Source: an uncultured Candidatus Saccharibacteria bacterium (GTDB lineage Bacteria; Patescibacteriota; Minisyncoccia; Minisyncoccales; JAGOPM01). From it: a DNA stretch of 64,000 nt. The notes beneath the pieces were generated by a model. The model ran no database searches and was not told the origin of the DNA. It was given only the letters and a program-made list of their open reading frames with translations. The position numbers and the translations under genes are program-made. Position 1 is the first letter of the stretch; each line of letters starts with the position of its first letter. Location: the NCBI GenBank assembly GCA_964596325.1, contig CAZQSQ010000002.1:10820-74819 (forward strand). Direction: 5' to 3'. Positions 7,883 to 58,250 of the stretch are shown one piece after another.

Positions 7883-7886
7883 TATG

Positions 7887-41085: not shown

Positions 41086-42380
41086 CTTATTTGGCGGAAA
41101 TTATTGCCGGCATATTCGCAATTAAGGCCCAATTCCTCCTCGATGCGCATAAGCTGATTATATTTTGCCAGCCTTTCGGAGCGGCAAGGTGCGCCGGTTT
41201 TAATCTGCCCGGCCATGATGCCCACAACCAAATCCGCAATAAAGCTATCTTCTGTCTCGCCTGAGCGATGCGAAACCATTACGCCCCAATTAGCCCCCTT
41301 GGCATCGATGCAAGCCTGAACCGCTTCCGAAACAGTGCCAATCTGGTTGACCTTAAGCAACAAGGCATTGCAGGCCTTTTTTTCAATAGCTGTGGCGATT
41401 CTCTTGGGATTAGTAACCAGCAAATCATCTCCGACAATTTGAACCTTCTCACCCAAAACCTCGGTTAATTTTTGGTAAGACTGCCAGTCGTCCTGATCGA
41501 ATGGATCTTCAATGGAGATAATGTCGTATTTTTCCACAAATCCTTTATAAATCTCCACCATCTCATCCCCGGTCTTCCAATCCGCTTGGGCAGCCTCGCC
41601 CTTAAAATTCAAATTATATTTTCCTTCTTGAAAAAATTCCGAAGCGGCCACGTCCATGCCGATTTTTACCTTGCCCGAATAGCCGGCCTTTTTAATGGCC
41701 TCGCTTAAAATATCCAAAGCTTCGTGGGCGTCCTGCACGTCCGGAGCAAAACCGCCTTCATCCCCGACGTTAGTGGCATTCAGGCCGTATTTGGCTTTGA
41801 GAATGGATTTGAGAGTTTGATAAATTTCCGCCCCGTAGCGCATCGCCTCGCGGAAATTGGGTGCACCAACAGGCAAAATCATAAATTCCTGCATGGCCAA
41901 TTTATTACCCGCATGGCTGCCCCCATTAATGACATTTAAGCTGGGCACGGGCAAAACAAATTTGTGCACATCGAAATTTTTGGCTAAAAACGCATACAAT
42001 GGCAATCCCTCTTGCGCCGCCAGAGCTTTGCAAGCAGCCATGGAAACCGCCAAAATCGCATTGGCTCCGAATTTACTTTTATTCTCCGTTCCATCAGCGT
42101 GCAAAAGCAAAGCGTCGATTTCAGCAATAGTGGCCACTTCCCGATTTTCTAAAAGCCGGGCAATCGCTTCGTTGACATTTTTTACCGCCTTAAGCACTCC
42201 TTTGCCGCCGAAACGGGCTTTATCGCCATCGCGCATTTCCAAGGCTTCATAAATACCGGTGCTGGCCCCTGAGGGCACGGAAGAACGGAACAAGCCTTTT
42301 TCGGTCAGTAAATCAACCTCCACAGTGGGGTTTCCGCGAGAATCTAAAATCTCGCGGGCAATTATTCTTTGTATTTTCAT
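41082..42380 (-). CDS. eno: Enolase
   Basis: Begins [23 protein letters not shown]; carries the enolase signature and catalytic loop. 432 aa. Confidence 0.95.
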
Positions 42381-43255
42381 AAATCTAATTTTTTGAGATA
42401 ATCTTTGAATTCCGTGAATTCGGGATCTTGCACCGCAAATTCAACTACAGTTTTAAGATATTCTACCTTATTGCCAGTATCGTAATATTTGCCGTCATCT
42501 AAAACGATAGTATAAACCGGCACACCTTCGGATTGCAATAAATTAATAGCATCCACCAACCAAACTTCCCCGCCCTTGCCAGGCTTGATGCGCTTAAGGG
42601 CATCGATAATTTCGGGAGGCAAGATATAAGCACCGTGTGTAGCAATATTGGATGGTGCTTCATCGGGCTCGGGTTTTTCCACAATTTTTTTGACTTTATA
42701 AATATTGCCCTCGACCGGCTCCAAATCAGCAATGCCATACCGGCGCAAATCTTCCTTTTTCTCAATGCGCACACCCGAGATAACAATGCCGCCAAGCTTC
42801 TCATAAACTTCAATCATCTGTTTGAGTCGCGGCGGGTTGGCATGGATAAATTCATCTCCCCAGAGCACGGCAAAAGGCTCATTTTTTATAACCGGTTCAG
42901 CGCACAAAACCGGTGTGCCATTGCCATAGGCACCCTTTTGCCTGATATAAATAAAATTGGCCATGGTGGCGATATCAGTAATCTCTTTAAGTATTTTTTC
43001 CTTGCCACCGGCTTGCAAATTATTAACCAAATCCTGATTGGGCACGTCAAAATGATCCTCAATGGCGCGCTTGTTGGCGCCAGTCACAATCACGACATTT
43101 TCCAACCCGGATTCAACAATTTCCTCGACCACGTATTGAATAACCGGTTTGTCGACAATAGGGAGCATCTCTTTGGGCATGGCTTTGGTCTGCGGCAAAA
43201 ATCGCGTTCCCATTCCGGCGGCCGGAATTACTGCTGTTCTAATTTTCTTTTGCAT
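42377..43255 (-). CDS. galU: UTP--glucose-1-phosphate uridylyltransferase
   Basis: [34 protein letters not shown] nucleotidyltransferase N-terminus typical of GalU. Confidence 0.85.
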
Positions 43256-43261
43256 ATTTTT

Positions 43262-44629
43262 TTACTTTTTAATTCTTAAAAATGCGGGGATATCCCATTT
43301 CTTTTCCTGCTCAGACATTTTCTTTTCGCTATCTTCGGCCTCGCGCTTAATCTCAATAGCATTCTTGCGCAAATTGTCACTGCCCTTATCGGGTGCAGGA
43401 TGAGTGGTAATGGTAATTTTTTGAGCCGGCTTGCTCGCTGCTTTTTTTACGGGCTTTTTGTGCTTGGCTTTGGGTGTCGGCGGCTTTACTTCGGGCTTAA
43501 CTTCTGGTTTGCTTTCGCGAAAAATGGCGTCCCGGATATTTTTGACAGGACTGCCCTCACCGATAGCTAAAAGCGTTACCCGAATCTTGTCGCTTTTGTC
43601 CGAACGCAGCAAAATTCCAAAAATTATTTTGGCTTTGATGTTGGGCGAAGTGATGCGTTGGGCGATTTCTTCAACCTCCATCATTTTCAAATCGGCTGGA
43701 CCGGTAATATTAAACATTATCCTTTCAACCTCGATGGCTTTGGCTTCCCGGCCGCTGACAATACCATTGTCCACCAAAGGATTATCCAAAAGCTTTTCAA
43801 TCATGGTATTGAGGTCTTTGCGCTCCCCCTCAATGCTATTTTGGTAAGCGGTTTTTCCATAACCCTCCAAGATGCTCCGAAAATCCGCAAAATCAATATT
43901 GATCAAACCCGCCTCGTAAAGCGTTTCCAAAAGACCCTTGATGGTCATGGCCAAGCTTTTATTGATGGCAGAAAACGATTGCTTGATGGCCGTGCGCGGG
44001 TCGATTACCTTGAATATTTTTTCATTAGGAATAACTAAAGAAGCGGAAAGATGCGGCCGGATATTTTCCAAAGACTCTTGGGCAATGCGGCGGCGCTTTT
44101 CTCCCTCAAATTCGAACGGGAGGGTAAAAATTCCCAAGCTAATTTTGTGTGCTAAGCGTGACGCTTCGGCAAAAATTGGCATCGCGCCCGAGCCAGTTCC
44201 CCCGCCCAAGCCGGAGATAAAAATGCACAAATCACAATTTGCCACTTCTCTTTTTATTTCTTCTTTGGATTGCTCGGCAGCTTGGCGGGCCAAATCAGGA
44301 TTCATACCGCAGCCCAAGCCGTTAGTTAAACCCTTGCCCAAAACCAATTTGCGAACATTTTCCGGTAAAGATTCCAAACTTTGAATATCGGTATTGGCAG
44401 CCAAAAAAGAAATTTTCTTATTCGGGGCAACAATATTGGCAATCTCCCCGACAATCGAGCAACCTCCGCCGCCCACTCCAAAAACCTTTATTTTAATTGC
44501 GGGGTTTTCCATGGAGTGCGCCTTGGCTTGTTCGATTATCTCCTTGGCAATATCCTGAGATAAAGGGGCCGGAGCTTTGGTTTGATTTTTTTTATCCGCT
44601 TTTTCCATAAAATTTGGCAGAATTACCAT
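43262..44629 (-). CDS. ftsZ: Cell division GTPase FtsZ with a long K/P-rich C-terminal linker
   Basis: GVGGGGCS, the tubulin signature GGGTGSG and the T7 loop. The C-terminal roughly 100 aa are lysine/proline-rich. The start could be 44629 or 44608. Confidence 0.9.
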   Translation of the reverse strand: MVILPNFMEKADKKNQTKAPAPLSQDIAKEIIEQAKAHSMENPAIKIKVFGVGGGGCSIVGEIANIVAPNKKISFLAANTDIQSLESLPENVRKLVLGKGLTNGLGCGMNPDLARQAAEQSKEEIKREVANCDLCIFISGLGGGTGSGAMPIFAEASRLAHKISLGIFTLPFEFEGEKRRRIAQESLENIRPHLSASLVIPNEKIFKVIDPRTAIKQSFSAINKSLAMTIKGLLETLYEAGLINIDFADFRSILEGYGKTAYQNSIEGERKDLNTMIEKLLDNPLVDNGIVSGREAKAIEVERIMFNITGPADLKMMEVEEIAQRITSPNIKAKIIFGILLRSDKSDKIRVTLLAIGEGSPVKNIRDAIFRESKPEVKPEVKPPTPKAKHKKPVKKAASKPAQKITITTHPAPDKGSDNLRKNAIEIKREAEDSEKKMSEQEKKWDIPAFLRIKK

Positions 44630-45183
44630 TCTGCCCGGTTAATTTTCAAATAAAAACCGATTTTGTTGATAATGACGTGTAAAATAAAAGTGAAGACCAG
44701 TAAAATTACCCAAATCCGGATATCGGCCAGCTTGCCGATAAGAAAAAATACGAAGCCTACACCAATGACATAATTGATTTGGTCCCAAATAATCCAGCTT
44801 TCCCCGGGCTCCAAATTAATCCGTCTCTTAATAAAGCTGAAAAGCAAATCGCCGCAGAGCGCGCCTAAAGGAATAAGAATGCCCAACCATAAAGGTTCTT
44901 TGCTGTAATCAAGAATGGAGATGGCTTGGAAAAAATCAGCGACGTAAAGCAGCTTTTGCACAACATAAATCAGAAAACCGACCAAAGTCCCTAGAATAAG
45001 TCCGCGCCAAGTTTTATGGTCTCCAAAAATATCATTGCCCCGGAATTTCCTTCCCCCATCAACGGGCTTGTTCAAAAATTCCGCAATACCTAAAAAACGC
45101 AAAACCGGCGGCGTCATATTGGCAAAATACGCCGGCAAAAAAAAGTATAAACACTGGACGATTAATTGGGAGGAAAAATTCAT
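44623..45183 (-). CDS. CDP-archaeol synthase-like (DUF46/CarS family) CTP-dependent membrane protein
   Basis: Five or six TM helices and a GDHKTWRG motif like the CarS family. 186 aa. Confidence 0.55.
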   Translation of the reverse strand: MNFSSQLIVQCLYFFLPAYFANMTPPVLRFLGIAEFLNKPVDGGRKFRGNDIFGDHKTWRGLILGTLVGFLIYVVQKLLYVADFFQAISILDYSKEPLWLGILIPLGALCGDLLFSFIKRRINLEPGESWIIWDQINYVIGVGFVFFLIGKLADIRIWVILLVFTFILHVIINKIGFYLKINRAEW

Positions 45184-46436
45184 CAGATAAGCTTTGATTG
45201 TTTTTTTTCTTTGCGATGAGCCGCTTCCAAACCTTTCAACTTGCCGTAAACCCCATCATAGCCGGCCTCCATTTGCACTTTATCCAAACGCACTAGCTCG
45301 ACAGCTGCGGCAATTCCTTCATCAGAATGGCGGGCAATGTCGGCTATCGGCGTTTCAAGCAATAATTCAAACTCACTGGCGACATTTTGGACCAGTTTTT
45401 CATATTGCTCTTTCACCTTGCGGCTAGTGGGGCCAACACCAAAAACATAAGCAATTATCTCTTCGAGCGGGACAATATGCTTAAAGCCAATAGCACCCTC
45501 GGGCTTGAAACCTGAAGGATGTTGGGCGATTTGCTCAACCCGGCTCAGCACGCCAATTGTGAGTTTTTGCCCGCAAACCGGACATAGGCCATTATAGCGC
45601 GCAGTTTCTTTTGGGTCAAAGCTTATTTGACAATTAGCATGCCCGTCATTGTAATATTTACCCTCTTGCGGAAAAAACTCGATTGTGTTCAAAAATTGGC
45701 TATTGTCACGTTTTTTAATTGCCCCGATAATGAAAGTGTAATCCAAATCGCAGGCAAAAACATTGGCCTCCCGGCCTAATTTTTGGATAGAGTGCGCGTC
45801 AGAGTTGCTTAACAGCGAAAGGCGGCTGCCATCAGATGTACGCCAAACCATGGCCGGGTCGGCAGAGAGCCCGGTTTCCAAAGCATAAATTTCTGGAGTC
45901 AGTTCCTCAAAACATTCCTGCAAGGAATCAAAACCGGATTTGCTGCCAAAAACCGAAAACCACGGCGTAAAACAATGTCCGGGAACAAAAAGCCCTTGCG
46001 GTGCGCAATCCAAAAAAATTTTTAGCAGTTCTTTGGTATCCAAGCCCAAAATCGGCCGTCCATCGGAATGCAAATTAAATTTTGACAACCTTTCGTTGAA
46101 TTTTTTTGCCGCGGCAATATCAGGAAAAATTACGACAATATGGATCTTGCGCACTTTGCCTCCCTTGCTGTAGATGCAGCTAATTTCCCCAGTAACGGCA
46201 AAATGCACTTGCTTTTCGGGCTCTAAAAGCGAATCGCGCAAAAGATAAAAACCGCTACCCGTTTGTTCCAATTTGGTTTCCATCTCTTTCATCCACAAAG
46301 GATGGGTACAGTCCCCTGTACCCAAAACTTTGATGCCTTTGCGGCACGCACCTTGTTCAAGCGCCTCCAAAGTAATGGCACTGGAAGTGGCGCGCGAATA
46401 TCGGGAATGAATGTGGAAATCGGCTATCAGCTTCAT
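45183..46436 (-). CDS. Endonuclease Q-like PHP-domain nuclease
   Basis: MKLIADFHIHSRYSRATS..VLGTGDCTHPLW closely parallels the archaeal EndoQ N-terminus (DLHIHSxYS..LVGTGD). C-terminal Zn-ribbon-like CPVCGQKL. Start set at the internal Met because the extension overlaps the upstream gene. Confidence 0.65.
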   Translation of the reverse strand: MKLIADFHIHSRYSRATSSAITLEALEQGACRKGIKVLGTGDCTHPLWMKEMETKLEQTGSGFYLLRDSLLEPEKQVHFAVTGEISCIYSKGGKVRKIHIVVIFPDIAAAKKFNERLSKFNLHSDGRPILGLDTKELLKIFLDCAPQGLFVPGHCFTPWFSVFGSKSGFDSLQECFEELTPEIYALETGLSADPAMVWRTSDGSRLSLLSNSDAHSIQKLGREANVFACDLDYTFIIGAIKKRDNSQFLNTIEFFPQEGKYYNDGHANCQISFDPKETARYNGLCPVCGQKLTIGVLSRVEQIAQHPSGFKPEGAIGFKHIVPLEEIIAYVFGVGPTSRKVKEQYEKLVQNVASEFELLLETPIADIARHSDEGIAAAVELVRLDKVQMEAGYDGVYGKLKGLEAAHRKEKKQSKLI

Positions 46437-46437
46437 A

Positions 46438-49400
46438 CTATTTGAATTCCTGGCAGCTGCCCGCATACGGACACCATTTGTCCGTGGCTCTGGTAACTGT
46501 AAGGTCTAAATACTTTTCTACTTGTTTCCTACCTTGCAGGCAAGTGATATAGAAACGGACCGGGCTTTCCACTTCCTTCATGCCAAAGGGCGCGGAAGCA
46601 TAAAAGGAGAAATCGAATTGCTGATAATTAACCGACATTTTCTTGGAAATCGGGAAAATAATTTTTTGCGGGTTGACTCCGATTACCTCGGCCGCCACGG
46701 CCGCTCCTTTGGATTTAGCGCTGCCGGTGATAAATTTCAGACCGCTGGGCAAAATTCCCTCGATAGTCATCTTGCTATCCCTGTCGCAGCCAAATGCCTT
46801 GGCTAATGCGCTCGAACCGTCGTCAGGGTTAAAATAGGGCAGATTTCCGCTGTTTTGGAAATAGCCAAGCCTCTCCATAATACCCTTGCCCACCGCTTTA
46901 GCCACTGCTTTGTCTTTGATGTCGCGGGCATCCTCGCTCCATTTGGGAGTTTCTTCAAAAATATCAAATTTACGCTCTCGGCTCGGATCGGTTTCGTAAA
47001 TATACCAAGCCGCATACATATCGATCTTATTCTTCTGGGCGGCTCGGGCTTCCCGAATTGCGGCTGAAACGCACTGGTCGGACATAAAATTAGCCGTAGT
47101 CAGCGAACCGTGGCAAACAGCCTTAGCCACGCTATTACGTGTTTCACTGTCCGTATAACCGCCATCTTCGGTAGGCAAGCCTTCGGAAAGAATAAGCATG
47201 ACTTTTACATCACCGGCGCGGCCGGCAGTTATCAAGGCTTGGTGGGCCATATTGATTGCCTTGGCCAAATTGGTTGTCCCGCCGTAAGAAAGCGAATCCA
47301 CGGCCGAATTCCAAGTATTAATATTCTGGGTAAAAGCCAAAGGAATGCCGTTATTAGTCATCTTCAACTTGGCTGTACCGTGGCTGGCTTCGATGATACC
47401 GATATTATCCTTACCGCTCTCCGTATTTATTTGGCCATACAACCCCTTAATAACCTGACGATATTGCTCCAAGAATTTTGCACGGTCCGGGGCATTGGCC
47501 GGGACATTCATAGATTCGGAAAGATCGGCCACAATCATCACATAGCGGGAAATGTCAAAATCTTCAGCTTTTAAGTTGCTGCCGCGGGTTAGCTCACCGC
47601 TGAATTGATAGCAGCCGCAATATTCTTCCAAGGGCAAAAGGATTGTCTGGTTTTCCGATATCTTGTCGAGCTGGCCACCTTGGGAGGTCGCCATATATTC
47701 CAAAGTAATATCGAATTTTTTATCCTTATCCAAATCCATGCTGGCCTTATCCAAAGAAAATTTGATATTAAACGGCTGCGTTTCGCCGAATTTCATTTCT
47801 CTGTTAAAGGCAACCGCGTAACTGACTGTCCCGTCAGGCGACTCGCTGGCCTTGCGCGCTCCGGCTACCGTTACTTTTTTAGGCGCTCTCACAACCACGC
47901 TCAGAGAACTGCAACCCTCGTTGAATTTGCACATGATAGCACCCTTAAAATACGTATAAGCAAATTTTCCTTGCGTGCCGCATTCCGTGCAAAAATCCGC
48001 TTTAACTTCCACGCGGGGCGGAGGCGGGCGGCGACAAAGAGCAAACTCTTGCGGGCTAGGCAGGCTCTGCGCTGCTGGCTCGGCCACGGAAGAAGCCGTA
48101 ACTACGTCTTTCCCGGCAAAAACTGAAGCCTTGATATTGAATAATGCCGCGTTATTTTTCAACGAAGATCCCGTAATCAGCTTCTCAAGATTTTCATGGT
48201 CCACCTGCCACTTGAGGTTGACATATTCGGTTTCACCGGCGGCAAGCAAGGGTATGGAAAAGCGTAAATTGCCCGGCTTAATCTCAGAAAATTCCACTTT
48301 ATCTAAGGCGCTTTCAAAACCGGCATAGCGGACCAAATATTTTGGCGAGTAGGCCACATTTACACTGACGTTTTGGCAATTCAGCTGGCCTTCGCATTTA
48401 AGGGCGATACTGCTTGTGCCGATATAATTTACCGAACCGGGATTATAGCAATCAAATTCCGTTTTAACGCTGGAGACTATATTTATCTTGGGCAATTCGC
48501 CCTTGGGCGGCTCCTTGCACTCTTCGGGAATGGGCATGGCAAAAGTGATATTTTCTATCTTGCCATACTGGCGGGTGTAGCCATTGGTATAATTTAGTTG
48601 CGCCTTAGCCAAACCGGATTGCGGCAAGCTGCCCGAGTAGTTGAGGCTGACATCAAACTCAATGGTTTTGGATTCTCCGGGCACCATATCACCCAAAGAA
48701 AAGCGCACCCCGTTCATGCCGTCAAAAGAATTGTCGTAAACCGCCCCTCCGCCTTGCAGGCTGCTTGAATATTTGAAAGTTTTGGCAATATAAGAGGCGT
48801 AAACCGGAAACTTATCGGAAAGATAAATGTCTTGGCATTTGAATTGCGGATAATTGCCTATGCAGGTTACCTTGAAAGTTAAATGAGCGACACACTTGTT
48901 TAACGCAATATTGCGCTCGATGGCAATGTCTAAACCGCCCTCCTTTTTATCCTCGGGTTTTACGCACATGGAGGCCTTATTCATTCCCAAATCCAATTCC
49001 CGCTTATAGCCGCTGGAATCGACGAAACGATAAAGACTCTTGGGAAAATCCACAAGATTGCCCGGATTGCTCACCTTATAATCCTTGTCGAAAATCACTT
49101 GAAAATTCATGATTTCCCCCATAGTCATATTCCCCGTATTCCATTTAACGACGGAATTATTCTGCTCCATACCCAAAAGCTTGGCCTTACTTGGATAATT
49201 AACCGTGCTGAATTTATAATTGCCCTTGGCGCGCAATTCCAAAGAAGAATTGTCGCAGACCGGCGGCGGAGAAGTTTTTGACTTGGTGATAATTTTGTCA
49301 AAAATGGAATTAAGATCGGAAAGCGTCTCAGACTCAAAATAATAATCATCGCCCTTGGCCATATCGCGCAACAGTTGCCTGGCATTCTTAGCTGCCTCTT

Positions 49401-50481
49401 CGGGCACATTAACGGTCAAAAACCCGGCTTCGGTTTTTATCCGCAAAGTTTGACCTTCGCTTGACTCGAGCTCTTGCAAGGCGTAACCCACGACATTGAG
49501 CTGAATATCATTTTTGGCCACAGCCGTCTTTGCCCGATCGCGAGAATCGACAACGCATTTATTATTGCCTGAAGGCGGGTTAGTTTTGGGAGAAGGATAA
49601 GATTCGTCGCACTCGCCATTGGTGGAATTGTTAGGCACGCCATCGGAAAGGAGAATCAAAACTTTTTTACTCCCCGATTTGGGATTGGCGGCAAAAAGAT
49701 CCATGGCCTTTTTTAAGCCGTCGGCAATATTGGTCGTGCGCTCTCCCGCTACTAAAGAAGAAATTGCGCCGCGGCTTTTAGGGAATTTGGCCGAAGCATC
49801 AAAGCCACCCGAAACTATTTTCCCGGCATTGCCAAAAGTGACAATACCCACCCGATCGAATTTTGAATCAAATTTATCCATGGCCGCCAGCAAATGCTGC
49901 TTGGCATAATCAATGCGGCGTTTGCCATTGGCCAAAGGTTGGCCCATGGTCCCGGAAATGTCCACCAGAAAAACCACATCGATATTATTACGGACTATCT
50001 TTGTGGTGTTGGGGCTGCCGCAAACTATGCCAAAGCAAACCGCCGAACGCCCCGAAACATCTTCGTATTCTTTTTCGCCAGTATCTTCATTGGGTAAAAC
50101 CTCCCCACCCTCGGGGCGCGAAACTTCAAGGGCAGGAGACTGGTCCTGAGCTAAATCAGAGCTGAGCGCTTCTGGTATCTGGCCAGCCTCAGTTGTCGGG
50201 GCGCAGGCCGCGCGCACATCGTCACCGTATTGCAAAAAAGTATTGGCGACAAATTCGCCAAGCGCACTGCCCGAGGGCACGTGCAAGGGCCCGACTTTGG
50301 TAGATTGCCCTTTGCTTAAAATATCCAATAAAATATCCTGCCCGTCGCGAAAAATGCTCTGGGTGGAAAAATATGTCCCCTCTTCATTGGTCTGATAAAA
50401 AATCTTTGGGCAGTCCTGCGCTAGGGCAAGCGGCGCAATACAGAATAATGCAAATGCGGCGGCAATAATTTCTTTTTTCAT
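46438..50481 (-). CDS. Giant secreted protein (1347 aa) with two von Willebrand factor A domains
   Basis: Signal peptide MKKEIIAAAFALFCIAPLALA. VWA/MIDAS blocks VDVVFLVDISGTMG..ILLSDGVPN and VMIVADLSESMN..MLILSEGLPT. Many Cys residues. Confidence 0.7.
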   Translation of the reverse strand: MKKEIIAAAFALFCIAPLALAQDCPKIFYQTNEEGTYFSTQSIFRDGQDILLDILSKGQSTKVGPLHVPSGSALGEFVANTFLQYGDDVRAACAPTTEAGQIPEALSSDLAQDQSPALEVSRPEGGEVLPNEDTGEKEYEDVSGRSAVCFGIVCGSPNTTKIVRNNIDVVFLVDISGTMGQPLANGKRRIDYAKQHLLAAMDKFDSKFDRVGIVTFGNAGKIVSGGFDASAKFPKSRGAISSLVAGERTTNIADGLKKAMDLFAANPKSGSKKVLILLSDGVPNNSTNGECDESYPSPKTNPPSGNNKCVVDSRDRAKTAVAKNDIQLNVVGYALQELESSEGQTLRIKTEAGFLTVNVPEEAAKNARQLLRDMAKGDDYYFESETLSDLNSIFDKIITKSKTSPPPVCDNSSLELRAKGNYKFSTVNYPSKAKLLGMEQNNSVVKWNTGNMTMGEIMNFQVIFDKDYKVSNPGNLVDFPKSLYRFVDSSGYKRELDLGMNKASMCVKPEDKKEGGLDIAIERNIALNKCVAHLTFKVTCIGNYPQFKCQDIYLSDKFPVYASYIAKTFKYSSSLQGGGAVYDNSFDGMNGVRFSLGDMVPGESKTIEFDVSLNYSGSLPQSGLAKAQLNYTNGYTRQYGKIENITFAMPIPEECKEPPKGELPKINIVSSVKTEFDCYNPGSVNYIGTSSIALKCEGQLNCQNVSVNVAYSPKYLVRYAGFESALDKVEFSEIKPGNLRFSIPLLAAGETEYVNLKWQVDHENLEKLITGSSLKNNAALFNIKASVFAGKDVVTASSVAEPAAQSLPSPQEFALCRRPPPPRVEVKADFCTECGTQGKFAYTYFKGAIMCKFNEGCSSLSVVVRAPKKVTVAGARKASESPDGTVSYAVAFNREMKFGETQPFNIKFSLDKASMDLDKDKKFDITLEYMATSQGGQLDKISENQTILLPLEEYCGCYQFSGELTRGSNLKAEDFDISRYVMIVADLSESMNVPANAPDRAKFLEQYRQVIKGLYGQINTESGKDNIGIIEASHGTAKLKMTNNGIPLAFTQNINTWNSAVDSLSYGGTTNLAKAINMAHQALITAGRAGDVKVMLILSEGLPTEDGGYTDSETRNSVAKAVCHGSLTTANFMSDQCVSAAIREARAAQKNKIDMYAAWYIYETDPSRERKFDIFEETPKWSEDARDIKDKAVAKAVGKGIMERLGYFQNSGNLPYFNPDDGSSALAKAFGCDRDSKMTIEGILPSGLKFITGSAKSKGAAVAAEVIGVNPQKIIFPISKKMSVNYQQFDFSFYASAPFGMKEVESPVRFYITCLQGRKQVEKYLDLTVTRATDKWCPYAGSCQEFK

Positions 50482-50483
50482 AT

Positions 50484-51263
50484 TTAATTATGTAGATTTT
50501 TTGGATAATTTTTTATCTGCCCTAAAAACTTTCGATTGGCCCATTCCCAAAGATCCTTGGCGGAAAGGAAGGCCCGATACGACTCATCCATCCCTTTCAT
50601 TTTTTTGAACTCAATTTCTCCCATGGGCGCATTAAAATCGTGTTGGCAAAAATATTTCCCACCCGTAATCTTGATGTGCCCTTCTTTATCGCGGCGCTTG
50701 GCGCCGCAAATATCACAAACTTCATATTTGTCGAGGCGCAATATCCAGCTGGCAGTCGCTTTTTGGTCTTTGGCAGCAGCTTTATTATGAGCATGGGCGT
50801 AGGCCGCAGTTTGCAAGCCGTATTCCTCCCAAATCCCGCTGCCTGTTTTTATATCGACTATTCCGACCTCCCCGTCTATCCGGGCCAAAATATCGGCCGT
50901 CCCGCAATAGAAATGCTCCTGATTGTCGATAATCTTTTTTTCTACCGCGATTACTTCAATGTCATGCTTGGCGCGCCATTTGACCAATTCTTGCATTATG
51001 GGTTTAAGCTTCGGGTCGAACCCGTCTTTGCCCTGCAAAAAATTTTCGGCGGCATCATGCACCTTTATTCCGTTTTCCGCGGCCAAACGCATAGCCTCTT
51101 GGGCTGCGGTAAAATTTTTCTGCTGCGCATAATAACGCAAAAGCCCGGGCTTGGCGACAATCTGCAAAATCGAGGTAACCCGCGGCAACCAAAAATCCTC
51201 AACCTCGTAACCGTGCTTGGCACGGAATTCCTTAAGCATTTTTCCTTCTTCCTTGTTAGTCAT
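50484..51263 (-). CDS. Cytoplasmic PD-(D/E)xK nuclease, RecB/Cas4-like PDDEXK_1 family
   Basis: GTADILARIDGEVGIVDIKTG (D...DxK) and the YGLQTAAYAHA QxxxY motif. No signal peptide. C-terminal CxxC..C..H. Embedded between genes for giant secreted proteins, with 2-10 nt spacings. Confidence 0.6.
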   Translation of the reverse strand: MTNKEEGKMLKEFRAKHGYEVEDFWLPRVTSILQIVAKPGLLRYYAQQKNFTAAQEAMRLAAENGIKVHDAAENFLQGKDGFDPKLKPIMQELVKWRAKHDIEVIAVEKKIIDNQEHFYCGTADILARIDGEVGIVDIKTGSGIWEEYGLQTAAYAHAHNKAAAKDQKATASWILRLDKYEVCDICGAKRRDKEGHIKITGGKYFCQHDFNAPMGEIEFKKMKGMDESYRAFLSAKDLWEWANRKFLGQIKNYPKNLHN

Positions 51264-51273
51264 CTTTCCTTTT

Positions 51274-54200
51274 TCATCTGACCGGCGGTCTTATGCCGAT
51301 AAATTCATCCGGAGCATAAAGCGTTATATTGCAATTATCAAAGCGTAATTTGCCATAACCGTTATCGCCCCAAGTAGTTCCCCAACTGTTTTTAATTATC
51401 CAATACCTGTCTTTTTTGTTGTAACCGACAACAATGACTCCATGGTTTACTGATGAGCTAGAATCCTTCTCGCACTCGAAAACCCCGTCATCGCCAATCC
51501 TAAAGGCGGCCAAAATTTTTCCAACAAAAGGCCCGCGCTGATCCAAAACTTTCATCATATACTCGGTTGTAGCCGTAGAAGGGCCCAAGTCCGGGCTAAC
51601 AAACTGCGGGGTGGCTTTTGTGCCCCGAGTCTGCCAATCGGCGCATTGCGCTTTGGCAATCGCTTCCCCAAAAGGATATTTTTCTCCGGGCATGCAAGCC
51701 TCGTCAACAATACCATTGCCCATCAGAGCCCACTCCTTGGTGGTCTGATAGGGCGCGATACTGAGGCCATTAGGCAAAGGAAATTTATCCGCTGAATAAA
51801 GCCAAATTTCCGAAAGGTCCAAATTTTTGCCAGCATCCCTTTGCTCAATTTTATAGCGCGATTCGATGGTCCCGCAATACGCATAGGCCCAACAGTTGCC
51901 GATGCCATCCTGATCTTTAACTGAAGTCAACCAATTTTTCCCGTCTTTATTGCGCCAGTCGACATCGTCTTTATTGGCACTGGAACGGAAATTTATTGTC
52001 GCAACCACTCCACTTTCATCTTGGCCGTCAAACTTCCCGTCAAAGTTCCTATCCAAGCACCAATAATGGGTTTGGGCCTGCTCCGTTCTGGCAAACTCAT
52101 AGGAAACTTGGCAAAAAGCACTGCTACCCAAATCACAGTTGCCCAACTCCGGACCGCTGCAAGAATCTTTTTTGACAGAAATTTTCATTTTCCGGCAATC
52201 ATCAAATATTTCTATTATCCCATCTTTGCCAATTGCCGAGAGCGCCCAATGCAAACGAATATTCCCTGCGCTGGGCAAATAATCATAGTAAAGCGCCTTT
52301 TTATCATTTTCTGATTTATAAGGCTGCGTGCTATCGCTGCTCCAAAACAAAGTTTTTACCGGCGCGGTGCAATTATTAACCGGGAGCAATAATTTGCTGG
52401 CATCAAAAACATAAGATTTCTCATCGCAGAAAATTTGGCGCATTTCATCTTTGACGCAAGCGCGATAACCGTATTTCAGATCAGCCGGCTGGGCTTTGAG
52501 CTTGGCAATATTGATATCAAACCAGAATTTTTCAGCCTTCGAGCGATAATCCAATGGCAAAGCTATACTGTCATCCCAAACATATTCTACCCCGCCCGCT
52601 TCCCCGGCCGCAGCTGACCAAATGGCAAAGCCGCCATAAACTTCCGGATATTCGTCCAAATTATTAACTTGGCCAGTCAGAATGATCGCCTTGGACCCGT
52701 CAAAATGCACGGCAGTTTTAGCCTCAGCGCTAAGCGTTTCCACTATGGGCGTAATCTTGGTTGTCAGCCCAAGCCAATCATTGGCACAATAATACTTCTC
52801 ATCCTCCCAATATTGCTTGGCGCAAAGCCTCAACTTAAATTTCCCCTCCCGATTATTAGTTTTAATATTGGCAAAGCCCAACCAAACTTTTATATCCCCG
52901 GTGCCGGCTGTATTTTTGAGAATGCTGTCATTTTCGAAAGCCACAGCTTTATCGGCTGGATTAGCCGTGTTGTAATATTCATAGCCCAAATAAAGCCGAT
53001 TAAAATCCCGCCAATTATCCACAACTCCATCGATCTTATATCCGGGATAACCGCCACCCTGATACTTCAAGGCGACATTGCGGACTATCGGGACTTTTAT
53101 ATCGGAAATCGCAAAACAATAATCTTCCTTGGCGCAAACCAAATATGTGTCAGGCGTTCCCTCAAATAAAGGCGTGATGCAGGCCCGATAGCAGAACCTC
53201 GCTTCTCCCTTGCTCGGCTTGATGGGCGATAAGGGCTCCATATCCAAAGCCTCCGGCGTAGTATCCAGTTCACGATAAGCGGTTTTCTCTGACGAAAAAA
53301 CGCTTTGGTTGCGATAATCGAAACTTTGCCAAGTGAAAAATGTTCTGAGTATCGGGAATTTGCCCGTGTTGGTAATACGCCCTTGGGGCAAAATCGTGCC
53401 ATCGGCGAGCATTTTGGGCGGTAAATTAATAACATCAATATCCTCTAAGCCCCTCACCCGCTCGCTGACAATCTCACCGCAAACTTTGTCTTTAGGGTTT
53501 TTAGTCGGCGAGGCGCAGGCCGCGTAAGTGATATTTTCATAATTATCGAGGGGCAAAAATGATTTGGAGTCTATTGTTTTCTTAAAGGCGACATTTCTGC
53601 CTTGATTAAGTGGTTTGTCGAGCCAAATGAAACTATCCTCCTCAATGCTAGCCCAGTCAATCCACGGCTCGTGGTGTGCGATATAAGTCAACTCCTTGCC
53701 AAACATACCGATTTGGCCCGTGGGAATATCTTCATGCACGGTTTCGGAATATTTTTTCGTATCATAAATCGCGAAGCCCGCGTAAAGCTGTTTGGCGCCC
53801 CAAAAAGAATTCACCCGGCCGTTAAGATCAACTGTCTTGGCGGTGATATTGCTTGGGGCAAATGTTTGGACATAAGGCAAATCCGGAAAGCAAAAATACG
53901 GCGAGGAAAAAATATTAGTTCCGGTTTGCCGGGCGTAAATTTTCACACAGGCCTTGTCGCCCTTGTCCAAATAAATCCCCTTGGGCGAGAAGCTGACAAT
54001 TTTTTTGTTCGGTAAAATCTGGGTCCTTGAGGAAAAATACCCGTTGACCGGTTCAATTTTTTGGCCATTAGCCTTCTTAATCGTCAAATCAAAACAATAT
54101 TCCACGAAGGAATCGGCCTTATTCCCCGGATAAAGGCTGGCCGAAATTTGCAGACTGCCGTCATTTTTATTGATTTTTGCATCCTCAATAATTGCCTTAG

Positions 54201-54591
54201 GGCTGGGGTAAAGCTCTTCCCGGTCCATATCGCGCATGGCTTCGAAGCAGTAAGGTTTTTCCGAATCATTCAAATTAAAAATTTTGGCCTTAAGCGCATA
54301 ACCGCTGCGCAGTAAAAAATTAGCGGCAAAAAACGTGAATCGCCCGTTGTATTTAACCCGAGAATTGCCGATTACAAAAGCCGCCTTATTGCTGCCTTTA
54401 GGAAAGACTTCATAAGCCACGCTCACGCCCTGATTTTCAGCCAAACCGCTGGCCGTGGCGCTGATAAGCGTGCCATTATTTTTGGTTTGATAGGAATTGA
54501 TCGTGACTGCTGGCGCCGCCAGAACCGGCCATGCAAAAAAAACAGAACAGATTATGGCAAGAATAATATTTTTTTTGCCCATAACGCTCAT
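51274..54591 (-). CDS. Giant secreted protein (1105 aa) with a C-terminal papain-like (C1A) cysteine peptidase domain
   Basis: Signal peptide. The C-terminal domain carries the papain triad contexts: DQDGIGNCWAYA (Gln plus 5 residues then the catalytic Cys), NHGVIVVGY (His) and YWIIKNSWGTTWGDNGY (Asn). Confidence 0.7.
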   Translation of the reverse strand: MSVMGKKNIILAIICSVFFAWPVLAAPAVTINSYQTKNNGTLISATASGLAENQGVSVAYEVFPKGSNKAAFVIGNSRVKYNGRFTFFAANFLLRSGYALKAKIFNLNDSEKPYCFEAMRDMDREELYPSPKAIIEDAKINKNDGSLQISASLYPGNKADSFVEYCFDLTIKKANGQKIEPVNGYFSSRTQILPNKKIVSFSPKGIYLDKGDKACVKIYARQTGTNIFSSPYFCFPDLPYVQTFAPSNITAKTVDLNGRVNSFWGAKQLYAGFAIYDTKKYSETVHEDIPTGQIGMFGKELTYIAHHEPWIDWASIEEDSFIWLDKPLNQGRNVAFKKTIDSKSFLPLDNYENITYAACASPTKNPKDKVCGEIVSERVRGLEDIDVINLPPKMLADGTILPQGRITNTGKFPILRTFFTWQSFDYRNQSVFSSEKTAYRELDTTPEALDMEPLSPIKPSKGEARFCYRACITPLFEGTPDTYLVCAKEDYCFAISDIKVPIVRNVALKYQGGGYPGYKIDGVVDNWRDFNRLYLGYEYYNTANPADKAVAFENDSILKNTAGTGDIKVWLGFANIKTNNREGKFKLRLCAKQYWEDEKYYCANDWLGLTTKITPIVETLSAEAKTAVHFDGSKAIILTGQVNNLDEYPEVYGGFAIWSAAAGEAGGVEYVWDDSIALPLDYRSKAEKFWFDINIAKLKAQPADLKYGYRACVKDEMRQIFCDEKSYVFDASKLLLPVNNCTAPVKTLFWSSDSTQPYKSENDKKALYYDYLPSAGNIRLHWALSAIGKDGIIEIFDDCRKMKISVKKDSCSGPELGNCDLGSSAFCQVSYEFARTEQAQTHYWCLDRNFDGKFDGQDESGVVATINFRSSANKDDVDWRNKDGKNWLTSVKDQDGIGNCWAYAYCGTIESRYKIEQRDAGKNLDLSEIWLYSADKFPLPNGLSIAPYQTTKEWALMGNGIVDEACMPGEKYPFGEAIAKAQCADWQTRGTKATPQFVSPDLGPSTATTEYMMKVLDQRGPFVGKILAAFRIGDDGVFECEKDSSSSVNHGVIVVGYNKKDRYWIIKNSWGTTWGDNGYGKLRFDNCNITLYAPDEFIGIRPPVR

Positions 54592-54592
54592 A

Positions 54593-56053
54593 TTATTTGC
54601 AATTTGTTAAAAATTGGATTGCGGCAATATTTTTAATCCCGCCAAATTTGGAAGACCAGTACGACTTGGCCGAATCATTGGCCGCTCCGGAATTTTGGCC
54701 ACTCCCATTGGCCAAGTTCAGCGTAAAATTGACTTTTTGGCCGCTTGCAACATTGCCCACGGCTATGCCCAAAGAATTAAGCTGCGAGTTGTAGTTGATA
54801 GTATAAGGAGAGGCAACATTGCTACCAAGATATGAAATGCCCGGGTTTAGCCGAAGGTAAGCAAAAACATCTTCGCAATTTTTTGGAAGGGATTTTTCTT
54901 GGGCAAACATACTGCCAAGCGTGATGGAGATTTTTGACAAATCTTCCGATTCGGAAAATGTAGCCGGCAAACTGGCCATATTCTTCATCAGACTTTTGGC
55001 GAAAGCCCCAGCATTGGGTTTGATTTTATCAGTTTGGGCAAAATTAAAACCAATAGTATAAATCTTGGCCGGGGATTTATCGGAGAATTTAGCGTAAAAG
55101 GCTTGGTTTAAGGCATCTTTGGTGCAGGTATTGGCGCTTGTCGGATAAGATTGCCAGTCTGGGCACTCACCCTTGGTGTAGGCATTAGCAACCCCGTCAG
55201 AAACGAGCACGATAATATTGCGCCTAGAATTTGGCGTGGAGCTTATCGGCAGCGCTGAAAGCAAATTGCGGGCCTGCAAAATTCCATCGGCAATATTGGT
55301 TAATCTTTCATTAGCCGCAAAAGCCTCAAGGGTGGCGGCGGCCTTGGTGTAATCGCTACTCATACCCAAAAGAATTTTCCCCTTGGCGCCAAAGCCCACG
55401 AGCGCCACCTTATCAAAATTTTTATCCAATTTGGCCAACAGCCCTTTGATGGCCGCCTTGGCATTATTAAGTGGAGCTCCGCGCATAGTGGCTGATTGGT
55501 CAAGCACAAAAACTATATTGAGCGCGGGCCGCACATATTGAAGATTTTCGCTGGGGCAAGAAAATTCAATATTGCCAGAAAATCGGCAGCTCGCCGCAGG
55601 CTTGGCAAATGTTTTAGGCATTGGCTTGGCTACCAAAGGCAAATAACTTTGTGCTCCCGTAGGGCGAAAGCCATCGTCTAGATTTGGAAAATATCCTGAG
55701 GCCCGCATCGTGGCTATCATTTCTGTTTTTTTACCCACAGCATCTACGCAGGCAAAACAATTTTTAGAAAATGCCGAACCGCAAAGCTTTGGGTCACTAA
55801 GAACTTGCTGTTTAAGGCCGTAAAGCTCGCAGTAATTATACTTGGTGGAAATTTTGCCATTGACCAAGCCCCAAGAATCGGCTTGCTTGCCATCGGGCAG
55901 CGTACAGAGGGAATATTGGCCCGCCGCCGTAGTGATAACTTTTGAGGGAAAACCCATTTGCAGGCAATAGGCGGTCGAGGGGTTGTGCATGGCACCCGCC
56001 CCCAAAGGCAAAAGCGCCGCCAAGGCAATTATTGCAAATATTTTTTTAGACAT
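54593..56053 (-). CDS. Secreted DUF333 (putative hemolysin-like) plus VWA domain protein
   Basis: Signal peptide, then HNPSTAYCLQMGF..YSLCTLPDGKQADSWGLVNG matching the DUF333 pattern (NPAS.YC...G..CTLPDG..W). VWA/MIDAS block IVFVLDQSATMRG..IIVLVSDGVAN. Confidence 0.65.
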   Translation of the reverse strand: MSKKIFAIIALAALLPLGAGAMHNPSTAYCLQMGFPSKVITTAAGQYSLCTLPDGKQADSWGLVNGKISTKYNYCELYGLKQQVLSDPKLCGSAFSKNCFACVDAVGKKTEMIATMRASGYFPNLDDGFRPTGAQSYLPLVAKPMPKTFAKPAASCRFSGNIEFSCPSENLQYVRPALNIVFVLDQSATMRGAPLNNAKAAIKGLLAKLDKNFDKVALVGFGAKGKILLGMSSDYTKAAATLEAFAANERLTNIADGILQARNLLSALPISSTPNSRRNIIVLVSDGVANAYTKGECPDWQSYPTSANTCTKDALNQAFYAKFSDKSPAKIYTIGFNFAQTDKIKPNAGAFAKSLMKNMASLPATFSESEDLSKISITLGSMFAQEKSLPKNCEDVFAYLRLNPGISYLGSNVASPYTINYNSQLNSLGIAVGNVASGQKVNFTLNLANGSGQNSGAANDSAKSYWSSKFGGIKNIAAIQFLTNCK

Positions 56054-56068
56054 ATTTTTGAAAAATTT

Positions 56069-58111
56069 TTAGGGTTTTATCGCCTCCCCGGGCGCATTAA
56101 CTTTTTGCACGGAGATAACCTCATCTTTGAAATTAGGAACCATGCCACACTCGCCATAAGGAATGTGAATAAATCCGCCGTCCCCCCAGCCAGTGCCCCA
56201 ACTATTTTTGATAATCCAACTTCCGTCTAGCTGACTATAACCAACAATTAAAACCGCATGCGAATATATGGCATCGGCCCGCCAATTTGCCCCGCAGCGC
56301 AGGCGGCCGGCCTCATCGAAGTAGGCGTCGGAATGAAAAATATGCCCGTGAATCGGCCCATACTTGCGGATAGCCGCTTTTATTTGATCCAAACCGATAG
56401 TGCCTTTATCCCCGATTATCTTTTCCCACCCGATAAAAAGCCTTTGTTGCCAATCCGCACAGCGATTGGCGCAATGGTCACCGGGTAACGGATAACCGTC
56501 TTTATCCAAAATTCCGGCATTATACGGAAAACAATTTTCATCCACTGTGCGCATTGGAAATTGCCAATCAACCTCGTTCTGATTGGCATATTTTTGGTTT
56601 TCATTAGCACAAGCCGAGAAAAAACTTTCCGAAAGATCAATATCGGTATTAGGCAAATCCCTCTCAATCAAATAGCGAGATTCAATGGCGCCCGTAGTCC
56701 TGAAATCCGCACACGTTCCGGAACCGTCTTGGTCTTTAACGCGCGTTACATAGCTGCCCTTGGGCCGATTGCGCCAATCAAAATACAGCCAATCAGCCTG
56801 CTCGTAGATGTCATATTGGGCAAAAACCGATTCCCCGAAGCGATCAAATTTGCCATCCCCATTTTTATCTACGCAAGCAAAAACCTTATGCCCGCCAACT
56901 TTAGTCTCGAGATTTCTCAACATTAAAAGGCAGCCTAAACTTTTCTCCCCAATGTTATAATTATAACCGGTATTACACCAAGTTATCATCTCACCTTGGC
57001 AGGACTCTTTGCGCAACTGTATCTCCTTATTTTGGCAATCCAATTTTAAGCGGACATCAATATGGGAAATTTTGGCCTCCTCGGTTGTAAAATTTGTTTG
57101 CCCGAGAAATTCCATGCTCAAATTCGAAGAGCAGGCTTCCACCCCCTCGGCGATTATCGGCTCCTCATCGTAACACTTGATATAAATTTCTTTTAGCTTA
57201 TATTTGGCTTTATTATCCTTGCTATACTTCAACAAATTCACTTCGCATTCCTGCGAATCCTGATACTGGCTGGAGGTTTTAATTACCACTTTTTTCCCGG
57301 CCAAATCTTTAGCAATGTAATAGTACTGCCTAGCTACTCTTTTCTTAGCAAGGTCATAATTACCGCTGGCAAAAGCATTAAGGCAATCATTTTCACTTAA
57401 ATAACAACCGTGGATGGCGGCCCCGGCCAAATTATCCGCCTGCCAATAATGGCAAAGGGCGCGGCGGGCAAACACTTGCGTTGAAAGTTGGGCGTTGGCT
57501 GAGCCGTTATTTAAGGCACAATACCACATGGGTTGGGCCAAGTACCCGCAATCGTAGAGCGGCCCGAAGCCGGAAGCATAAATCAAATCCACCGTATCCA
57601 TGGCCGAGCCGGTATCATTGGCAAAAGAAGAAGCATCGGGATATTTTTGCGAAAAGCCGACAGGGAATTCTTTGGCAAAATAATAACCCACAATCTGCCC
57701 GTCGCTGGCGCGCCGGCTAATCCTGATCATGGCCCCGCGGTAACAATAATAATCCCCGTCGCTGTCGCTGGAAGTTTTAAGCTCGGGCATTCCCAAAACC
57801 GGATTGACGGCATACTGGGCCATATTGGAAAAACTTAAATCATAAGAAAAACTCCCTCTGTTCACCAGTTTGCCGGTTTTGATCGTCACAATCTCGCTTG
57901 GCCGGCGCCGCAAAAGGACCTCGAACCACGGCTCCAAAGTAAAGGAAGTCGGGTTGATAATTTGGCCGGAAAGGGTCGCCCCGTTTTGATTTGTTATTTT
58001 CTTCAAATTCGTAAAACGCGGAAAATTACTCTCCGCCAAAACGTGATTGAATGCCAAAAATAACAGGCACGCCGAATATGCAATTATGTGCAAAAATTGG
58101 CGCTTGCTCAT
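56069..58111 (-). CDS. Secreted protein (about 680 aa) with a C-terminal divergent papain-like (C1) peptidase domain
   Basis: Signal peptide MSKRQFLHIIAYSACLLFLAFNHVLA. C-terminal VKDQDGSGTCADF (Q plus 5 residues then Cys, but W/A/F context altered), SHAVLIVGY and SWIIKNSWGTGWGDGGF. The longer ORF start at 58192 (GTG) falls inside the GC-rich repeat region. Confidence 0.6.
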   Translation of the reverse strand: MSKRQFLHIIAYSACLLFLAFNHVLAESNFPRFTNLKKITNQNGATLSGQIINPTSFTLEPWFEVLLRRRPSEIVTIKTGKLVNRGSFSYDLSFSNMAQYAVNPVLGMPELKTSSDSDGDYYCYRGAMIRISRRASDGQIVGYYFAKEFPVGFSQKYPDASSFANDTGSAMDTVDLIYASGFGPLYDCGYLAQPMWYCALNNGSANAQLSTQVFARRALCHYWQADNLAGAAIHGCYLSENDCLNAFASGNYDLAKKRVARQYYYIAKDLAGKKVVIKTSSQYQDSQECEVNLLKYSKDNKAKYKLKEIYIKCYDEEPIIAEGVEACSSNLSMEFLGQTNFTTEEAKISHIDVRLKLDCQNKEIQLRKESCQGEMITWCNTGYNYNIGEKSLGCLLMLRNLETKVGGHKVFACVDKNGDGKFDRFGESVFAQYDIYEQADWLYFDWRNRPKGSYVTRVKDQDGSGTCADFRTTGAIESRYLIERDLPNTDIDLSESFFSACANENQKYANQNEVDWQFPMRTVDENCFPYNAGILDKDGYPLPGDHCANRCADWQQRLFIGWEKIIGDKGTIGLDQIKAAIRKYGPIHGHIFHSDAYFDEAGRLRCGANWRADAIYSHAVLIVGYSQLDGSWIIKNSWGTGWGDGGFIHIPYGECGMVPNFKDEVISVQKVNAPGEAIKP

Positions 58112-58149
58112 GCCTGCTTTAATTATAGTATTTTGTTGCCTTAAAAGAA

Positions 58150-58250
58150 GTGGAAAACCCTGCCGCGTGCGAAGTCGCGTATAGCTCCGCACGCGACAAG
58201 CTATACGAGGGAAGCCGCGTGCGAGTATGGCGAGCTATACGCGGCTATTC
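58150..58250. repeat. GC-rich intergenic element with nested inverted and direct repeats (CGCGTATAGCT / AGCTATACGCG; GCCGCGTGCGA x2)
   Basis: CGCGTATAGCT occurs once and its reverse complement twice. GCCGCGTGCGA is directly repeated about 52 nt apart. CCGCGTGCG and CGCACGCGG can pair. Local GC is far above the window average. Lies between the helicase-nuclease stop and the protease-gene start. Confidence 0.4.

Follow-up and report, generated by a model that had tools for sequence, protein, structure and literature searches.

A probable variable surface-protein locus around a resident, predicted repair nuclease in Paceibacteria

Sortase-anchored pilus-tip adhesins of the RrgA/GBS104 type, built on VWA domains with a metal ion-dependent adhesion site (MIDAS), are known surface adhesins of bacteria. 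Here we analyze a locus that resembles these systems in part, found in a 64,000-nucleotide stretch (the window) of contig CAZQSQ010000002.1 from an uncultured member of the Patescibacteriota. Five consecutive minus-strand genes encode, in order of transcription, a C1A papain-like peptidase of 680 residues, a DUF333-VWA protein of 486 residues, a second C1A peptidase of 1105 residues, a PD-(D/E)xK nuclease of 259 residues, and a giant protein of 1347 residues with two VWA domains. As in adhesins of the RrgA/GBS104 type, the VWA proteins are multi-domain, predicted to be secreted, and carry MIDAS residues and flanking beta-rich modules. Unlike those adhesins, they lack an LPxTG motif and a C-terminal anchor, and their neighborhood contains neither pilin nor sortase genes. 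The two VWA domains of the giant lie 800 residues apart, and the DUF333-VWA fusion occurs in only 4 homologue clusters among 8000 scored candidates (word-indexed database of 5.8e9 proteins), all from the same clade.

The peptidases and the nuclease likewise have described relatives. The best solved matches to the peptidases are cathepsins K, L, S and H, with which they share a full C-terminal C1 domain, the Gln/Cys/His/Asn set and the IIKNSWG motif. Unlike typical C1A peptidases, those of the window lack a recognizable I29 propeptide and carry upstream 410-840 residues of Cys-rich, predicted beta sequence with an EF-hand-like DxNxDGKFD loop. The nuclease shares its fold and its E...D...DxK...QxxxY set with MGME1 and the phage exonucleases of phrog_298, but at 15-18% identity; it differs also in an inserted CxxC...CxH ribbon and in being a chromosomal core gene, syntenic with genes for endonuclease Q (EndoQ) and a UvrD-nuclease. 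For the secreted proteins, the nearest concept comes from methanogen-parasitizing Paceibacteria, in which signal-peptide-bearing peptidase-like and adhesion-domain proteins are reported to be highly expressed and were proposed as host-interaction factors (Kuroda et al. 2024, PMC10936435). That paper, checked for the word "Willebrand" and not for papain or C1, does not contain it, and highlights peptidoglycan-binding, Ig-like and PKD domains. Its organisms belong to the same class as the window's, and the likeness is one of concept. The parts of the locus thus belong to known families (C1A peptidase, VWA/MIDAS, DUF333, MGME1-type PD-(D/E)xK, EndoQ), while their assembly matches no known system. 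We consider it likely that the locus is a variable set of surface-protein genes around a resident repair nuclease, and not a nuclease recruited to an island of adhesins.

The evidence for this reading comes mainly from synteny. All window proteins were searched by tblastn against 79 loci of other species, which extended as far as 10 kb to either side of the nuclease gene. A C1 or VWA gene was detected within 10 kb of the nuclease in none of the 79. The genes for EndoQ and for a UvrD-nuclease are the conserved partners of the nuclease: of the 17 loci whose nuclease is at least 45% identical to that of the window, 15 have EndoQ no more than 3 kb downstream (25 of 58 overall), and in 9 of 10 such loci the UvrD-nuclease is found no more than 3 kb upstream. 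An initial annotation of the window, made from the sequence without database searches, had treated the nuclease as an unexpected insert among secreted proteins; comparison across species reverses this, with the nuclease as the conserved resident.

Two short slots, one between the UvrD-type helicase-nuclease and the nuclease (slot 1) and one between the nuclease and EndoQ (slot 2), hold the four secreted-protein genes of the window. In L008, L090 and L097/98, relatives with nucleases 53-57% identical, the order is M17 peptidase, methyltransferase, UvrD-nuclease, a two-transmembrane (TM) protein of 109-120 residues in slot 1, nuclease, EndoQ, CarS, FtsZ, NTP-transferase, enolase. Once the four secreted genes are taken out, the gene order of the window matches this "empty" arrangement. 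In more distant relatives a few small genes, for membrane proteins or of unknown kind, precede the nuclease and an HD hydrolase follows it; no homologue of the slot-1 TM protein, of these small genes or of the HD hydrolase was found in the window. A HEPN plus nucleotidyltransferase pair, toxin-antitoxin-like, sometimes sits between nuclease and HD hydrolase (L012:10798-11528, L017:4788-5518), and such insertions are a further sign of a labile slot downstream of the nuclease. The full five-gene order is kept in near-identical strains (L001-L007), in a relative at 90% (L087) and in a sister species (L092, L094-96), and is limited to the clade with nucleases at least 85% identical. The expectation that the five genes travel together therefore holds within one narrow clade, and fails beyond the genus level (0 of 79 species).

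The secreted genes also change at a different rate. Between the window and the sister species L092, they are 37-53% identical with dN of 0.41-0.69, while the nuclease, EndoQ, CarS, FtsZ, the NTP-transferase-like protein and enolase are 76-93% identical with dN of 0.05-0.20. In comparison with the sister species, identity is 85-87% for the nuclease and only 53, 48, 37 and 42% for the four secreted proteins. All five genes are under purifying selection (pairwise dN/dS 0.011-0.075). Values for the secreted genes are 0.047-0.075, versus 0.011-0.054 for the others, and they gain replacements 3-6 times faster than their neighbors. Against closer relatives dN/dS is 0.011-0.013 for the nuclease and 0.012-0.016 for FtsZ. 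All five reading frames, that of the nuclease included, are real genes. The five-gene arrangement is old, since the secreted orthologues have kept their positions even as their identity fell to 37-53%.

Relatives at intermediate distance show what else the slots can hold, and bear on whether the secreted genes were ancestral to a family-level clade and repeatedly lost or replaced, with the window as the retained state. In L088 (nuclease 68%), an unrelated Cys-rich reading frame precedes the nuclease, and EndoQ follows immediately. L089 (59%) carries a different Cys-rich reading frame upstream and, in slot 2, a full-length collinear giant of 1246 residues with two VWA domains, 24-27% identical to that of the window and sharing 18 conserved Cys and the MIDAS residues, followed by EndoQ. 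In L099/L100 (56%), two tandem paralogous Cys-rich secreted proteins precede the nuclease, with EndoQ downstream; one of them shows weak similarity (24% over 203 residues, E 4e-5) to the 1105-residue peptidase at its residues 126-315. The giant in L089, and the Cys-rich proteins that L088, L089 and L099 carry in slot 1, speak for an ancestral state. Against it, the VWA giant is missing at 68% (L088), at 57% (L090, L097/98) and at 53% (L008), and the relatives at 57% and 53% hold in slot 1 the conserved small TM protein that has no homologue in the window. We regard ancestral presence with repeated loss as rather unlikely, though worth keeping in view. The tandem pair itself (L099:3-3529) encodes proteins of at least 641 and of 516 residues without Pfam match, 85% identical over the first ~140 aligned residues, which suggests a recent partial duplication or gene conversion.

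The five genes, annotated as co-directional and 1-15 nt apart, are present as such (46438-58192), with gaps in transcription order of 15, 1, 10 and 2 nt. The spacing is not peculiar to them: the same packing, from -7 to +15 nt, runs through 13 consecutive genes (39562-58111). Promoter- and terminator-like sites occurred at chance frequency in a scan, and intergenic terminators were not above chance. Given this and the gaps of 2-10 nt around it, the nuclease gene is probably co-transcribed with the secreted genes, as judged from sequence. Co-transcription might be taken to mean that the nuclease is functionally coupled to them, with adhesins and proteases attaching to or attacking a host and a co-regulated RecB-like nuclease processing the incoming DNA; bacteria of the candidate phyla radiation (CPR) are thought to scavenge nucleic acids, and ComEC and pili have been cited as important in this (PMC10936435). 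Since identical packing reaches FtsZ and the glycolysis genes, co-transcription carries no specific meaning here; the nuclease would share a transcript with the secreted genes only because the whole 13-gene string is gapless. Throughout the class, it is the UvrD-nuclease and EndoQ, and not secreted proteins, that accompany the nuclease as conserved partners; the nuclease lacks a leader peptide, and its fold is that of the MGME1-type single-stranded DNA (ssDNA) repair exonucleases. No com, pilus or other DNA-uptake genes occur among the annotated neighbors. Co-regulation with DNA uptake or processing, as first suggested for the nuclease, thus finds no footing, its partners being repair genes, and we hold functional coupling to be highly improbable.

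Nor does the locus look foreign. The secreted genes have GC contents of 0.456-0.477, compared with 0.41-0.48 in most neighboring genes, and are no different from the flanking core genes in GC content at third codon positions (GC3) or in synonymous codon usage. The earlier term "island" therefore does not suit genes of native composition. A recently acquired block of mobile DNA around the nuclease would explain the patchy distribution (one narrow clade versus absence in 79 other species), the very small number of homologues anywhere, and the strain-specific 87-nt palindromic insertion and recurrent assembly breaks at the upstream junction. Among features of a genomic island, however, only the patchy distribution is seen, and not those of composition, mobility or boundary. 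The Pfam scan of window proteins found no integrase or transposase domains, no tRNA flanks the genes (the only tRNA of the window is at 7886), and they occupy two separate slots and not one block. Orthologues have diverged down to 37-53% identity and are still in place; the large proteins have no PHROG or PADLOC signatures beyond the peptidase core; and neither unrelated taxa nor contigs of phages or plasmids showed close copies (over 70% identity). Recent horizontal acquisition was rejected on native composition and codon usage, and an island origin seems to us very unlikely.

Table 1. Features of the locus and its flanks, in window coordinates.
Feature	Position	Strand	Basis or detail
UvrD/PcrA-type superfamily 1 (SF1) helicase with C-terminal PD-(D/E)xK nuclease and Cys cluster, 1021 aa	58245..61310	-	Pfam
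Palindromic structured insertion, 87 nt, strain-specific	58158..58244	-	directly after helicase stop codon
Promoter-like -10 element ACTATAATT	58121..58129	-	ahead of first peptidase gene; putative function
Predicted secreted C1A papain-like peptidase, 680 aa	56069..58111	-	leader; Pfam Peptidase_C1 5.6e-23
C1 domain of the 680-aa peptidase	56141..56782	-	Q461/C467/H618/N636; 82.6 bits vs cut-off 20.7
Predicted secreted DUF333 + VWA protein, 486 aa	54593..56053	-	Pfam DUF333 6.8e-11, VWA_2 3.9e-14
DUF333 (PF03891) of the 486-aa protein	55856..55990	-	residues 22-66; 42.7 bits vs gathering cut-off 25
VWA of the 486-aa protein	55010..55519	-	44.2/53.6 bits (PF00092/PF13519); MIDAS D185-Q-S-A-T
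Predicted secreted C1A papain-like peptidase, 1105 aa	51274..54591	-	leader; Pfam Peptidase_C1 5.3e-28
C1 domain of the 1105-aa peptidase	51322..51969	-	Q894/C900/H1050/N1068; 99.0 bits vs cut-off 20.7
PD-(D/E)xK nuclease, 259 aa, predicted cytoplasmic	50484..51263	-	PDDEXK_1 23.7 bits vs cut-off 22
Predicted secreted giant 2xVWA protein, 1347 aa	46438..50481	-	Pfam VWA 1.7e-24, two stretches, 87.4 bits
VWA-1 of the 1347-aa protein	49303..49980	-	MIDAS D174xS176xT178, T250, D280
VWA-2 of the 1347-aa protein	about 47032..47544	-	D986xS988xS990, T1070, E1100
Endonuclease Q homologue	45183..46436	-	PfuEndoQ 5zb8 2.5e-47 over residues 4-402; TIGR00375 1.2e-51
CarS-like gene	44623..45183		CDP-archaeol synthase family, 138 bits vs equivalog cut-off 148
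NTP-transferase-like gene	42377..43255

Positions and domains of these features are collected in Table 1. Every domain call of the initial annotation (two VWA, PD-(D/E)xK, C1A, DUF333 with VWA, C1) is supported by Pfam hidden Markov model search. The catalytic core, the QxxxY motif and the fold of MGME1/RecB-like PD-(D/E)xK nucleases are all present in the nuclease. Its catalytic residues (E108, D124, D137-x-K139, Q151...Y155) are invariant in 66 homologues, and the inserted zinc ribbon (C183, C186, C206, H208) is nearly invariant in the family. The AlphaFold2 (AF2) model has a pLDDT of 94.5. Its top match by Foldseek is human MGME1 (E 2e-8, TM-score 0.54-0.68), followed by RecE, AdnAB, Dna2 and Cas4; a profile of the family finds MGME1 among sequences of the Protein Data Bank (PDB) at 8e-9, and the PHROG match is the phrog_298 exonuclease at 4.8e-28. 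Cas4 was considered and rejected: TIGR00372 scores 23 bits against a cut-off of 65, the four-Cys Fe-S pattern is lacking, the sole set of four Cys/His ligands being that of the inserted ribbon, and no cas genes occur among the annotated neighbors. We predict that the protein works in the cytoplasm as an exonuclease on ssDNA, together with the helicase-nuclease and EndoQ. Relatives of the nuclease occur in 562 species of the genome collection (Paceibacteria), recurrently beside EndoQ (L008-L074) and, in closer relatives, beside the UvrD-nuclease fusion. This linkage suggests a compact DNA-repair module of Paceibacteria. No description of the nuclease-EndoQ linkage turned up in literature searches, which were not aimed at it.

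Both peptidases score above the gathering threshold of PF00112 and have the complete catalytic set, which places them in family C1. The claim of intact Gln/Cys/His/Asn contexts, first made for the 1105-residue protein, holds for both on alignment to cathepsins K and H, and the four residues are invariant in 5 orthologues. The best PDB match of the 680-residue peptidase is cathepsin H (1.6e-17), with catalytic residues aligned, and that of the longer protein to cathepsin K has an E-value of 1.5e-16. An I29-type propeptide, typical of C1A zymogens and not strictly defining, was not found; no N-terminal region has a Pfam match at E<=5. In the 680-residue peptidase this region spans ~410 residues; the EF-hand-like loop upstream of the C1 domain reads DKNGDGKFD, and the protein has 22 Cys. 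In the 1105-residue peptidase it spans ~840 residues of predicted all-beta modules, and the loop reads DRNFDGKFD. The two are 31% identical over their last ~320 residues (322 aligned), a similarity that takes in ~80 residues and the DxNxDGKFD loop upstream of the C1 domain. In one of the two paralogues, Ala replaces the Trp after the catalytic Cys.

Close homologues of these peptidases are rare. A metagenome scan with the 680-residue peptidase returned the source genome as its sole match. A word-indexed search with the 1105-residue peptidase found a single protein, at 90% identity; because a family cannot be analyzed from so little, an exhaustive phmmer search of 1.84e9 representatives took its place. 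It gave 14,111 matches to the C1 domain, only 9 of them at E<=1e-30, with only three extending beyond that domain. Structure prediction, proposed earlier for the large N-terminal regions, gave for this peptidase a poor model from a 5-sequence alignment (pLDDT 47.6), of which only the secondary-structure content was used; in it, the first ~870 residues are nearly pure beta strands in units of ~100 residues. Internal repeats are weak by hhalign (probabilities of 72% and 47%).

Both VWA proteins score above the gathering thresholds of PF00092/PF13519 and carry MIDAS residues. In the giant, orthologues as distant as 27% identity keep the MIDAS residues of both domains and 18 Cys unchanged, except that VWA-2 of the window has E1100 where orthologues carry D. 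The ~570-residue Cys-rich middle region has no Pfam match, and in the 486-residue protein the C-terminal ~140 residues lie beyond the assigned domains. The two proteins are paralogous (31% over 324 residues). Because the proteases are also paralogous, the secreted set looks like two old protease-VWA pairs. The architectures are specific to the lineage: C1 behind 410-840 residues of novel beta sequence without I29, the DUF333-VWA fusion, and the giant with two VWA domains.

Each of the four large proteins begins with a single hydrophobic segment ending in an Ala-x-Ala-like motif, and no further TM-like segment follows. The four signal peptides annotated earlier correspond to these leaders, which were called heuristically from the hydrophobic segment; on this basis the proteins are predicted to be secreted. 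Cys content is 2.2-3.2%. Leaders and many conserved Cys together mark the proteins as probably extracytoplasmic. The last 80 residues contain no LPxTG motif, no hydrophobic segment lies at the C-terminus, and none of the four shows a lipobox or C-terminal anchor. A sub-threshold EF-hand loop was the sole match in lenient Pfam scans of the unassigned regions. Literature searches for papain or VWA proteins in CPR or Parcubacteria found nothing specific, and the VWA papers found concerned other organisms or systems.

Conflict systems are known to include VWA domains, peptidases, nucleases and UvrD-like helicases, and one could read the proteins as an intracellular system of the vWA-MoxR (VMAP) type with nuclease and helicase as effectors. 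In PADLOC the helicase matches GajB and DRT helicase models and the nuclease weakly matches Cas4 models. A vWA-MoxR system needs a MoxR AAA+ ATPase partner and cytoplasmic VWA proteins; no MoxR ATPase is found among the annotated neighbors, and leaders and numerous conserved Cys are present in all four large proteins. The helicase matches reflect generic SF1 similarity, and the helicase-nuclease-EndoQ trio stands in conserved core synteny. The secreted proteins have no PADLOC match, on which the defense-system reading was rejected; we rate it extremely improbable.

Upstream of the locus, the helicase gene matches UvrD-helicase (2.3e-72), UvrD_C (3e-52) and PDDEXK_1 (1.3e-38), with partial matches to NCBIfam models for PcrA and AddA. 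Downstream, the EndoQ homologue resembles a solved EndoQ over its full length. Its reading frame of 427 residues (45183-46466) appears to share 29 nt with the VWA gene. Alignments with homologues begin only at residue 11 (MKLIADFHIHS), and the true start is therefore probably M11, 1 nt past the stop codon of the VWA gene. EndoQ of several relatives contains an insertion of ~400 residues (L017:6074-8572; L052, L055 and L074, where matches are split by ~1.2-1.3 kb); that of L017 is an intein, since Intein_splicing and LAGLIDADG domains occur in it. Beyond EndoQ follow a CarS-like gene, FtsZ, an NTP-transferase-like gene, enolase and phosphoglycerate mutase. The CarS-like gene, of an archaeal family, holds the same position in relatives. 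The remainder of the window is housekeeping (DnaK/DnaJ, tRNA synthetases, MurG, PPDK). The window is ~100% identical to a contig of GCA_029562315.1 (the near-identical strain L001), and its proteins are 94-99% identical to those on a 957-kb contig (JBAZJI010000001.1) of a Candidatus Paceibacterota metagenome-assembled genome. The organism is carried by digester or lake samples such as JGI 3300010357 and 3300029288.

The reading frame of the first peptidase extends to 58192, where it opens at GTG (707 residues). Its true start is almost certainly the ATG at 58111, because this start is called in the near-identical contig L001 and the upstream context is conserved in the sister species. That context, TTTTCCACTT...ACTATAAT...GGCATGAGCAAGCGCCA, is shared by the window and L094/L096, whose peptidase is only 53% identical. 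The 87-nt insertion further upstream has a predicted RNA fold of -42.9 kcal/mol (z -3.0). It is missing at the same junction from strain L001 and from L007, and no further copies were found in the window or in 93 fetched loci. Possible identities are a miniature mobile or REP-like element and a terminator peculiar to this strain. Sister-species assemblies from three independent runs (ERR3438387-9) end 140-166 nt upstream of the first peptidase gene, in intergenic sequence with hairpins at this same junction (L094:1-166, L095, L096:1-138); the breaks suggest strain heterogeneity or a repeat.

We picture the locus as follows. Its base is a conserved housekeeping string of Paceibacteria (CPR), with UvrD-nuclease, MGME1-like nuclease, EndoQ, CarS-like gene, FtsZ and glycolysis genes. 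In one genus-level lineage, both short slots beside the nuclease are filled by four fast-evolving genes for predicted secreted, disulfide-rich proteins: the C1A protease, the DUF333-VWA protein and the second C1A protease in slot 1, and the giant with two VWA domains in slot 2. The Sec pathway would export the four large proteins, which would work outside the cell. Their VWA/MIDAS modules may bind ligands in a metal-dependent manner on the surface of a host or partner, and the papain-like domains, on long beta-rich stalks, may cut surface or environmental proteins. Cleavage could serve attachment, access or amino-acid scavenging in an episymbiont auxotrophic for amino acids. The nuclease would stay in the cytoplasm and join the helicase-nuclease and EndoQ in processing DNA ends and in repair, and its position beside secreted genes would be a historical accident of where variable genes gathered, with no functional coupling.

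Several points weigh against this reading. The direction of change fits gain in the lineage as well as ancestral presence with repeated loss, relatives were ordered by nuclease identity and not by phylogeny, and the presence of the VWA giant in L089 and its absence from the closer L088 argue that at least slot 2 was occupied earlier. Since co-transcription is likely, shared regulation of the nuclease and the secreted genes also keeps some standing. With no anchor found, "surface" may mean freely secreted; the leaders were called heuristically, so that the extracellular role is a prediction; ~60% of the residues of the four large proteins, in N-terminal and middle regions, have no recognizable domain (lenient Pfam, E<=5); and the model of the 1105-residue peptidase is poor.

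The proposal that the large proteins are host-attachment or host-attack factors suits lineage-restricted, Cys-rich, fast-evolving and constrained proteins, and agrees with the expression pattern in PMC10936435; a role in host attachment or feeding is plausible from sequence. A bolder idea, which we think unlikely, is that the two slots are a dedicated, labile cassette site for surface proteins, kept under constitutive read-through with essential genes, and that the C1-VWA pairs form an extracellular "bind-and-cut" module. If so, lineages would load the slots differently, with C1 protease/VWA pairs, VWA giants or tandem beta-module proteins, and a C1 protease plus VWA module for episymbiotic feeding or attachment would be previously undescribed.

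In compact genomes such as this one, tight adjacency does not imply common function, and here comparative synteny overturns the account of an embedded nuclease. Host attachment and feeding by episymbionts of the CPR/Patescibacteria are largely obscure, and fast-evolving secreted proteases and MIDAS binders are reasonable candidates for them. The locus offers concrete targets for proteomics in anaerobic-digester communities.

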